DNA from: Escherichia coli
GTDB lineage: Bacteria; Pseudomonadota; Gammaproteobacteria; Enterobacterales; Enterobacteriaceae
Length of the DNA: 64,000 nucleotides
Reading direction: 5' to 3' (one strand)
NCBI RefSeq assembly: GCF_044647545.1
Contig: NZ_CP172818.1
The position numbers are program-made. Each line of letters starts with the position of its first letter. Within the stretch, counting starts at the first letter, position 1. Positions 34,401 through 37,400 of this stretch are shown here, in pieces.

Positions 34401-37400
34401 GCAGTTTCTCCAGCATTGCCTGAACGGCATTCCCGGTGCTGTATGAATCGGTTACTGATATATTTTCCTGCATAGATTTAACCGGCCATCTGAGATGGCC
34501 GACAGGTTAACATAATTACAGCCATTTAGGGCCACGCGCTCAGCCCGCGGGTGAAAACGCATCTATCACCTTGTGATCGACACCTTCATTCTCCCCCGCC
34601 AGTTCGGCACTGAGCTTCGCCATAAACTCGACTAAAAATTGCGCGTTGTGCTGCGCCAGCTGCTTGCCTCTTGCGGTTTGCATGGTTTGCGGTAATTTCA
34701 GTAACTTTGTCTGGAAATGATCCAGCGCGTAGCGTTTATCATCAAGCGGGCGATGCTGTGCGAACGGATCTTCGCCATCAAACAGCGCCACGCCCAATGC
34801 CCCTGAAACGGCAAACACGCGCGCCAGGCCAATCGCCCCCAGGGCTTCCAGCCGATCCGCATCCTGGACGATTTTAGCTTCCGTTGTTAAGGGGGCGATT
34901 TGCGCGCTGAAACTGTGAGCGGCAATGGCATGACAAACGGCCTCAATTTTCTCCGCCGGAAATTGCACGAACTCTTCACGGAGCAGGCGACGCGTCTCTT
35001 CTGCCGCCAGGATTGAAGAACGCTGCCGTTGCGGATGATTTTTCGCCAGGCTCACAATATCGTGAAAATAACAGGCGGTTAAAATCACCAGCATATCGAC
35101 GTCATCATCTGCCGCCAGCTTCTGTGCCGTAGCCCAGACGCGGCGAAAATGACACACGTCATGGGCCGCGTCCTGGTGCTGATGATGGTTTTTCAACCAG
35201 TTTTCGAACTCTGCCTGCCAGTGTTGTAAGTCCATACGCGCTCCGTTGCCAAAGAGTCGCCACCTTAGCAGTTTTTATTCATAGCGTCTGCTACGTGCGG
35301 GACGAGGTCGGGTGTACCAGGCAATGCTGCCTAACAATGCCCCGACCAGAGCCATAAATAAAAATCCGACCAGTGCCCCTAACCACTTTCCCGCGGTAGA
35401 GCCTAAATCGCTTTCAAATCCCGACACGGGGGCATCGGGGATCCGGCTCATCACCCAGATGTAACGCGCCATTGCCCAGACGAAATAGCCACACCATGTA
35501 TAGAAAGCCCACAAAGCCAGTTTGCCACCAGGGCTGCGAGAGAGTCTCTCTTCCATCTTTGTCGAACCGTATTCCATTTTGAGATAACCCGGAAAATTCA
35601 GACTTAGTACTATTATGTGATAAAAATCACATTTTTCCACATTGAATGAGCCAGTCAAGACTCAATCATTTTTTGAACAAATAGATAATTTTTGCGCAAC
35701 GGCAGTGAATACAAGAAAAATCGTTTTGAGCGATTTTATTTATCTTTGATATCGGCTTTATTAATTCATTCAATCAATATATTAGCACTGATTACAATTA
35801 TACCTTTTTATTATTCTGTGTCATGATGCCTCCGTTATTAGCCTTTTATCGTCTTGTTTATATTTTTTGGGCCGGCATGATGCCGGCTTTTTTTTATGCC
35901 TTCATTAATGTGCGCGTGATCACACCAGCCGTTTAGCGCAACGATCATTGATACTCCCTATCTTTCAGTTCAACTCATAACTTATTGATATACATTTATA
36001 ATCTTCATGAATGTTTATATTCAGAATTCATAATCCTGAATTATATTAAATAGATTAGAAACATTTTGAAATCTTTTAAATACATTTGTTACATGTAATC
36101 CTTAAAATAAAATGAACTTCATAGAATAGTATCCAAATGTGCTTTTTTTTGGATAACGGCACTTATTGATATATTCATGAAGATTATAATCACAAGGGAA
36201 TACATAATGAAAAGAAAAGTTCTGGCAATGCTGGTCCCGGCGTTATTAGTTGCTGGCGCAGCAAATGCGGCTGAAATTTATAATAAAGATGGCAATAAAG
36301 TTGATTTCTACGGCAAGATGGTTGGCGAACGCATCTGGTCAAATACTGATGATAATAACAGCGAAAACGAAGATACCTCCTATGCTCGTTTCGGTGTTAA
36401 AGGTGAAACCCAAATCACCAGCGAACTGACTGGTTTTGGTCAGTTTGAATACAACCTCGACGCCAGCAAGCCCGAAGGTGAAAACCAGGAAAAAACCCGT
36501 TTAACCTTCGCCGGTTTGAAATATAACGAGTTAGGATCATTTGACTATGGCCGTAACTACGGTGTTGCTTATGATGCCGCAGCTTATACCGATATGTTAG
36601 TTGAATGGGGTGGCGATTCCTGGGCTTCCGCTGACAACTTCATGAATGGTCGTACCAACGGTGTTGCAACCTACCGTAACTATGATTTCTTTGGCCTGGT
36701 TGATGGTCTTGATTTTGCGATTCAGTACCAAGGCAAAAACAGCAACCGTAGCACTAAGAAACAAAATGGTGACGGCTATGCGTTGTCTGTAGACTATAAC
36801 ATCAATGGTTTTGGTATCGTTGGTGCATATAGCAAATCTGATCGCACCAACGATCAAGTTGCCGATGGAAACGGTTCAAATGCTGAACTGTGGTCATTGG
36901 CTGCAAAGTATGACGCGAACAATGTCTACGCAGCTGTAATGTACGGCGAAACTCGTAATATGACTCCGGGTTCTATTGATACAGGTGTTGCCGATCGAGA
37001 AGGCAATACAATAATGCGTGATCAACTTATCAATGAAACCCAGAACTTTGAAGCGGTTGTTCAGTATCAATTCGACTTTGGTCTGCGTCCGTCCTTAGGT
37101 TATGTGTACTCTAAAGGTAAAGATATCAAAGGGGTACCTGGACATAGATATGTTGACGCTGACCGTGTGAACTACATTGAAGTTGGTACCTGGTACTACT
37201 TTAATAAGAACATGAACGTTTATACTGCATACAAATTCAACATGCTGGATAAAGATGACGCCGCCATTACTGGCGCAGCAGCTGATGACCAGTTTGCAGT
37301 TGGTATCGTCTACCAGTTCTAATCAGCCAACTCGCTGCGGCGTGTTACTGTAAAACTTAACACTAGCCTGAGTTCGTCCCTCATCGAACTCAGGCTTTTT

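Follow-up and report, generated by a model that had tools for sequence, protein, structure and literature searches.

The window analysed here, a stretch of 64,000 nucleotides of Escherichia coli DNA, is identical at the locus described below to E. coli FDAARGOS_497. It carries vsr, dcm, yedJ and drpB in this order on the minus strand, followed after drpB by the rseX small RNA gene, the yedS porin gene and hchA on the plus strand, and then by hprS on the minus strand. The dcm-yedJ-(drpB)-porin arrangement is also found in E. fergusonii, Citrobacter, Enterobacter and Klebsiella. The rseX gene (35805..35894, plus strand) was identified with Rfam model RF01401 (99 bits against a gathering score of 50, E=4e-14), and the MG1655 annotation of rseX at 2033649-2033739 corresponds to positions 35805-35895 of the window. 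A terminator scan returned a hairpin followed by a T-run at 35869-35895 (plus strand), with a 9-bp stem containing 6 G-C pairs; weak Rfam matches to STnc430 and RyhB (E=0.16-0.33) merely reflect this terminator and were discarded.

The yedS gene (36207..37322, plus strand; RefSeq annotation, WP_000824355.1) encodes an intact porin of 371 aa, whose NCBIfam matches to OmpF, OmpC and PhoE all fall below the cut-offs. RefSeq bears out the initial annotation on this point, which had described the reading frame as intact here and as a pseudogene in K-12, where it is frameshifted; in O157, too, yedS is a frameshifted pseudogene. The initial annotation had also offered an ATG at 36177 as an alternative start. 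This codon does lie upstream and in frame, but it is not the start of the porin, which RefSeq places at 36207. The Shine-Dalgarno sequence AAGGGA (36194..36199, plus strand, 8 nt before the annotated ATG) and ATGAAAAGAAAAGT are invariant across six genera, Escherichia to Klebsiella, the beginning of the signal peptide is likewise conserved between genera, and the ATG at 36177 is lost outside Escherichia. Codons 2-7 of yedS (36210-36227) are complementary to the seed of the small RNA RybB, and the duplex of RybB nucleotides 1-16 with the yedS start (-17.2 kcal/mol) was matched by none of 1000 shuffled seeds; this pairing site lies in the coding start, outside the repeat described below. A gene listed as 'yedS (ompS1)' is repressed on sigma-E induction (PMC2731931), and, according to the passage on the subject in PMC11267920, Warner et al. 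2013 found that yedS expression affected carbapenem resistance in a strain without OmpF and OmpC.

The intergenic stretch is 380 nt long and has a G+C content of 30.5%. It contains a direct and an inverted repeat, each with a distal copy (toward rseX) and a proximal copy (toward yedS), and the positions of the genes place both copies downstream of the rseX terminator and ahead of the start codon of yedS, with the 3' end of rseX 85 nt upstream of the distal repeat. The DNA that holds the repeat pair is already known as the intergenic region of rseX and yedS, from which yedS is controlled, and the earlier description of it as the regulatory region of the yedS porin gene is upheld.

OmpR-type boxes, promoter candidates and leader

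Four OmpR-type half-sites with 10-bp phasing, GAAACATTTT, GAAATCTTTT, AAATACATTT and GTTACATGTA, can be read at 36058..36097 (plus strand). The 11-mer ACATTTTGAAA (36061-36071) is identical to the C1 box region of ompC, and TGTTACAT (36087-36094) fits TGTWACAW, a motif obtained by OmpR ChIP-seq and found in that study upstream of Salmonella ompS1 (PMC3586657). The OmpR-like motifs to which the initial annotation had drawn attention are present at 36058-36073 and 36080-36100, and the boxes are conserved across six genera, from Escherichia to Klebsiella. Tandem half-sites with 10-bp phasing upstream of a porin gene promoter are the arrangement by which an OmpR-type porin promoter is recognised, and, judging from sequence, the yedS promoter is probably OmpR-dependent.

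Promoter scanning, conservation and comparison with ompC point to a candidate core promoter zone at 36086..36175 (plus strand). The candidates within it, all on the plus strand, are TTGTTA-16-TAAAAT (36086-36113), returned by the promoter scan; TAGTAT (36127-36132), invariant in all six genera; and TTGGAT (36149-36154)-15-TATATT (36170-36175), the putative -35 of which matches the TTGGAT of ompC. A local hairpin on the same strand, TATCCAAA...TTTGGATA (36130..36155), encloses a T-tract of variable length (36143-36150). The 20-mer at 36156-36175, which overlaps the proximal repeat copy, is marbox-like, agreeing at 12/14 specified positions with what we take to be the marbox consensus, and is treated as a lead only. 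Resemblances to the presumed IHF and H-NS consensuses also occur in the region; degenerate motifs of the marbox, IHF and H-NS type are common in AT-rich DNA.

The repeat pair and its conservation

The 13-nt direct repeat ACTTATTGATATA is exact at 35980..35992 and 36161..36173, just as the initial annotation had it. The inverted repeat reported beside it is also present and exact, but at 17 nt it is one base longer than the 16 nt claimed: the arms TTATAATCTTCATGAAT (35996..36012) and ATTCATGAAGATTATAA (36173..36189) are 100% complementary, with 160 nt between them. The layout is direct repeat, inverted arm, direct repeat, inverted arm, and the two copies lie about 181 bp apart, flanking the OmpR boxes and the promoter zone. 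The inverted repeat is itself composed of the small palindromes TTATAA and TTCATGAA, both held in the distal arm, and their order is swapped beside the direct repeat, so that an alternative description of the pair is a direct repeat with a gap, ACTTATTGATATA..CAT..TTATAATC.

First-order Markov resampling of the 380-nt intergenic stretch, repeated 3000 times, yielded a direct repeat of 13 nt or longer in 1.2% of the trials and never an inverted repeat of 17 nt or longer (0/3000). Nowhere else in the window does an inverted repeat reach 15 nt from an exact seed of 13 nt or more with its arms no further than 300 nt apart. These rates, together with the uniqueness in the window, mark the repeat of this strain as genuine rather than fortuitous. 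A search of the window for further copies of the motif ATTGATATATTCATGAA, allowing up to 3 mismatches, found it just once.

The two copies have fared very differently: in a set of eight E. coli strains, the distal element varies and the proximal one does not. Among ten Escherichia sequences, the proximal direct-repeat copy is invariant in 9/10 and the proximal inverted-repeat arm in 10/10, and ATTCA....ATTAT.AT of this arm is conserved across genera. The 67-mer spanning the proximal copy is present in 4878 complete E. coli genomes, with exact-match counts, by length of the T-tract, of 3040 (T8), 853 (T7) and 925 (T9) genomes; apart from this tract it is identical in at least 4818 of the 4878. 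The exact 60-mer of the distal copy, by comparison, occurs in 53 of about 4880 genomes (~1%), and only 79 genomes match it at all under megablast. At the distal direct-repeat position most E. coli carry ACaTATTGATATA, the 13-mer of the window recurs in E. fergusonii, and scores in other Escherichia run from 9/13 to 12/13.

Scored over the ten sequences, the direct and inverted repeats reach 13/13 and 17/17 in the window, 12/13 and 16/17 in K-12, 12/13 and 14/17 in both E2348/69 and E. whittamii, 10/13 and 12/17 in E. albertii, 9/13 and 11/17 in E69, and 9/13 and 10/17 in E1V33, respectively. When the inverted repeat is extended by two bases, K-12 matches at 18/19 positions and the window at 18/19 of the same positions with the mismatch elsewhere: the C at 36003 completes the match in the window, and the G at 36013 breaks its extension. 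Given these equal totals, the perfect 17-mer amounts to a shift in the position of the mismatch. Local alignment of the left and right elements beats shuffled sequences in E. coli and E. whittamii (p ≤ 0.01); in E69, E1V33 and E. albertii, where the proximal copy is unchanged, the similarity is not significant against shuffles (p 0.15-0.7). The likeness is thus particular to the E. coli lineage rather than conserved at the locus generally. At the same time, it is far beyond chance both here and in K-12, so that some process, whether local sequence exchange, duplication or selection, must have made it.

A profile of 50-nt identities between the window and six other Escherichia lineages sets the repeat in context. 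The proximal copy lies within a 250-bp block (36040-36289) that spans the OmpR boxes, promoter, leader and signal peptide and is 96–100% identical across Escherichia species, and yedJ and drpB are 80-92% identical. The distal copy lies in 35940-36039, the least conserved stretch of the locus (66-69% identity). Identity is 46-77% in the part of yedS encoding the mature porin. The proximal copy is constrained because it is part of this almost invariant promoter/leader block, in which it sits either on the core promoter or in the 5' part of the leader. The initial annotation had proposed the repeat geometry as a regulatory scaffold and had held that lack of conservation in close relatives would count against it. 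Such conservation was looked for and is lacking in the distal copy, which is perfect in 53 of about 4880 genomes, decays with phylogenetic distance and bears no significant similarity to the proximal copy in three other Escherichia lineages; a conserved scaffold finds no support here.

Interpretation of the repeat

We consider it probable, though far from certain, that the two copies represent the AT-rich DNA flanking a porin promoter that depends on OmpR and is probably silenced by H-NS, and that the exact repeat is incidental. The core of this region would comprise OmpR-type boxes in tandem, a weak promoter and a leader with its ribosome-binding site, and the two repeat copies would border it on its two sides. 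The distal copy would belong to a fast-evolving upstream region, the likely counterpart of which at Salmonella ompS1 acts negatively, being bound by H-NS/StpA and antagonised by LeuO. LeuO antagonises H-NS at Salmonella ompS1 (review, PMC4264507), and the rseX promoter, adjacent to the region studied here, is silenced by H-NS/StpA, for which occupancy data exist there (PMC8313858). Two single-base differences in this lineage make the match exact, and a third (G at 36013) shortens the 19-nt match of K-12. Since ~99% of E. coli carry the repeat in imperfect form and it weakens in other Escherichia, its exact geometry is read as an accident of drift upon a modest resemblance within the E. coli lineage. 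The repeat is a lineage-specific sharpening of a loose likeness between two AT-rich stretches at a normally silent porin gene, not a device that has to be a repeat, and is largely ordinary.

Possible, but in our judgement unlikely, is that the copies serve as paired sites, H-NS/StpA or LeuO binding both of them (TTGATATA together with TTCATGAA and TTATAA). Bridging would then loop out the OmpR boxes and the promoter and silence yedS, and the distal polymorphism would tune silencing by lineage. The placement of the copies, ~181 bp apart on either side of the boxes and promoter zone, suits such an arrangement, and so do several features of the distal stretch. The islands TGATAT, ATAA and TGAAT are kept within otherwise diverging sequence; across Escherichia, complementarity persists in 84.7% of inverted-repeat cells, where controls with a slid partner give 32-48%; and the distal site of E2348/69 is a perfect 14-bp palindrome, ATATTCATGAATAT. 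There is also a resemblance to the high-affinity motif of H-NS, tCGATAAATT. Conservation is slightly higher in the columns of the distal repeat than beside them (0.86 vs 0.79, p ~0.05; 4/94 circular shifts reach this value). Three things speak against paired sites: few sequences at the locus are less conserved than the distal copy; in three Escherichia lineages with an unaltered proximal copy the two elements show no significant similarity; and the sub-motifs are arranged in a different order and orientation in each copy. The retained complementarity and the conservation of the distal columns are compatible with weak selection on a shared motif or on short AT-rich words favoured by nucleoid proteins and, like the excess of the repeat over chance, count against a purely incidental repeat. 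That the pair forms two modules through which H-NS/StpA or LeuO bridges the yedS promoter, the distal polymorphism setting how tight the silencing is, strikes us as quite doubtful.

A long-range RNA helix, formed by the arms within an extended leader transcript so as to mask or free the ribosome-binding region, is very improbable. In this strain all 17 nt of the arms are complementary, and the 241-nt stretch at 35975-36215 folds somewhat better than shuffles (z = -2.0), but the helix is absent from both the minimum-energy and the centroid fold of that stretch, and the leader from 36120 onward folds no better than shuffles (z = 0.2). Not one of the 17 pairs has changes on both sides (0/17); the right arm never varies, and changes in the left arm break pairs at 6/17 positions. 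The distal arm, moreover, lies just downstream of the rseX terminator and upstream of the OmpR boxes and all candidate promoters, at least 108 nt above every candidate transcription start. For want of compensatory changes, of a helix in the predicted fold and of a distal arm within the expected transcript, the long 5'-UTR stem that the initial annotation had suggested is not sustained. RseX and MicF were also paired with the proximal element, over the whole length and by seed only, and gave duplexes no better than shuffles (fraction 0.17 for RseX and 0.62 for MicF).

Inversion was considered as well, given that the 17-nt inverted repeats bracket the OmpR boxes and promoter-like sites in the manner of an invertible promoter; recombination between the arms would flip the 160-bp segment carrying them. 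The segment 36013-36172 was flipped in silico, giving CTTCATGAATATATCAATAAGTGCC as the junction sequence of the inverted state, and used to query 5426 E. coli genomes. Among 4879 complete genomes, no match covered 80% or more of the flipped form (0/4879); the second orientation, which the initial annotation had suggested seeking in read data, does not appear in these genomes. With no recombinase gene found among the neighbours (vsr, dcm, yedJ, drpB, hchA and hprS) and a repeat that is exact in only ~1% of genomes, an invertible segment has almost nothing to commend it. A small mobile-element remnant with terminal inverted repeats and a target duplication would bring direct and inverted repeats together as seen here, yet its chances are negligible, as the second direct-repeat copy lies inside and not outside the right inverted repeat, the 210-bp unit occurs once per genome with no extra copies found, and its interior is a conserved native promoter that occupies the same place in Citrobacter, Enterobacter and Klebsiella.

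The repeat thus lies in a porin regulatory region that was already known, and it is real but lineage-specific; it changes nothing in the current understanding of the locus, and the result mainly removes an apparent candidate for an inverton or RNA switch. The constraint at the locus falls on the OmpR boxes, the promoter/leader block and the coding start, and the distal AT-rich stretch, including one repeat copy, is unconstrained. This map helps in reading variants at yedS, a gene for a spare general porin that many clinical E. coli carry intact and that is broken in K-12. As a host-source marker, the intergenic region of rseX and yedS is already in use. If the copies did act as bridging modules, the distal polymorphism could affect outer-membrane permeability and carbapenem susceptibility.

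Comparison with known systems

The locus resembles switches of the fimS type in that inverted repeats flank a promoter-containing segment, but differs from them: a second orientation is absent (0/4879 genomes), a recombinase is not linked to it, and in 99% of genomes the repeat is imperfect. By analogy with Salmonella ompS1 and with the silenced rseX promoter next to them, the two elements at yedS could be upstream and downstream silencer patches; the H-NS silencing of proU and bgl, through AT-rich elements on both sides of the promoter, is a parallel only.

The ompC promoter, with its boxes C1-C3, is similar in its 10-bp-phased half-sites, and TAGTATC and TTGGAT are shared with the C3 box and the -35 region, respectively. 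In both cases the gene for a porin-regulating small RNA adjoins the porin gene, micF beside ompC and rseX beside yedS; however, micF is divergent from ompC, whereas rseX lies upstream of yedS and is co-oriented with it. The two also differ in that yedS is silent or pseudogenised in many strains and ompC is without a comparable flanking repeat.

The remaining comparison is with ompS1 of Salmonella enterica, a quiescent porin gene with an OmpR-dependent promoter P1 and an OmpR-independent promoter P2, silenced by H-NS/StpA and derepressed by LeuO. De la Cruz et al. 2007 are said to have found that LeuO binds upstream of the ompS1 regulatory region, overlapping an H-NS nucleation site, and we know of no repeat pair of the present kind from ompS1. 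The 120 best relatives of YedS, many of them listed with no source name, include no protein named as Salmonella, and a YedJ-based scan of species genomes matched Escherichia and distant taxa and no Salmonella. Like ompS1, yedS encodes a porin of the OmpC/OmpF family, has OmpR-type boxes and an AT-rich upstream region, and is poorly expressed, and the distal element, in an intergenic region of 30.5% G+C, sits in the position equivalent to the upstream negative region of ompS1.

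Control and coding regions of yedS

The intact porin gene yedS (window 36207..37322, plus strand, 371 aa; a pseudogene in K-12) is divided sharply by its conservation. Across Escherichia species, the block comprising the promoter, leader, and signal peptide (window 36040-36289) is 96-100% identical, whereas the part encoding the mature porin (window 36290-37140) retains just 46-77% identity. Within E. coli, yedS alleles fall into several classes, in which matches to the query end at position 617, end at position 750, or continue through. On these alignments, yedS looks like a hypervariable surface protein driven by a conserved control region. 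E. fergusonii carries two tandem porin genes at the equivalent locus (positions 2501-3586 and 4163-5272 of the retrieved sequence, L031).

Directly upstream of yedS and on the same strand is the known RseX small RNA gene (window 35805-35894), whose terminator is flanked by T-runs on both sides; the initial annotation did not mention rseX.

Distribution in E. coli

Window 35700-36500, which spans the whole intergenic region, is without a counterpart in roughly 520 of the 5426 complete E. coli genomes, and at least one genome (H30) matches only its first 58 nt. These missing and partial matches suggest that rseX-yedS has been lost by lineage-specific deletions. The yedR-yedS intergenic region has served as a host-source marker (PMC11267920). 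Carriers of the exact distal 60-mer, the allele at the distal repeat copies (window 35980-36012), include several clinical isolates with names, such as PC-NDM34 and PRO_A-1534-6M-A_ESBL, that suggest ESBL or NDM carriage. The presence of these isolates among the carriers suggests that the allele belongs to one clonal lineage.

Immediately upstream of the proximal repeat, a T-tract (window 36143-36150) is polymorphic in length, with T8 in 3040, T9 in 925, and T7 in 853 genomes by exact-match counts (the 67-mer around the proximal repeat is present in 4878 complete genomes) and an identical flanking 59 nt. A possible -35 element, TTGGAT, adjoins the tract, which also makes up the loop of a local hairpin.

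Candidate regulators

The sequence AACGGCACTTATTGATATAT (window 36156-36175), which overlaps the proximal direct repeat, matches 12 of the 14 specified positions of the MarA/SoxS/Rob marbox consensus. Because matches to this consensus are frequent in the genome, the site is treated as a lead only.

The 5' seed of RybB is predicted to pair with yedS codons 2-7 (AAAAGAAAAGUUCUGGCA, window 36210-36227) at -17.2 kcal/mol, an energy equalled by none of 1000 shuffled seeds, and this stretch is conserved across genera. Sigma-E induction is reported to lower yedS 2.5-fold (PMC2731931), and the predicted RybB pairing fits both this decrease and the cross-genus conservation. In E. coli K-12, 'yedX/yedS' appears among the targets of PgrR (YcjZ, a LysR-type regulator) in a genomic SELEX table that also names leuL/leuO (PMC5934670).
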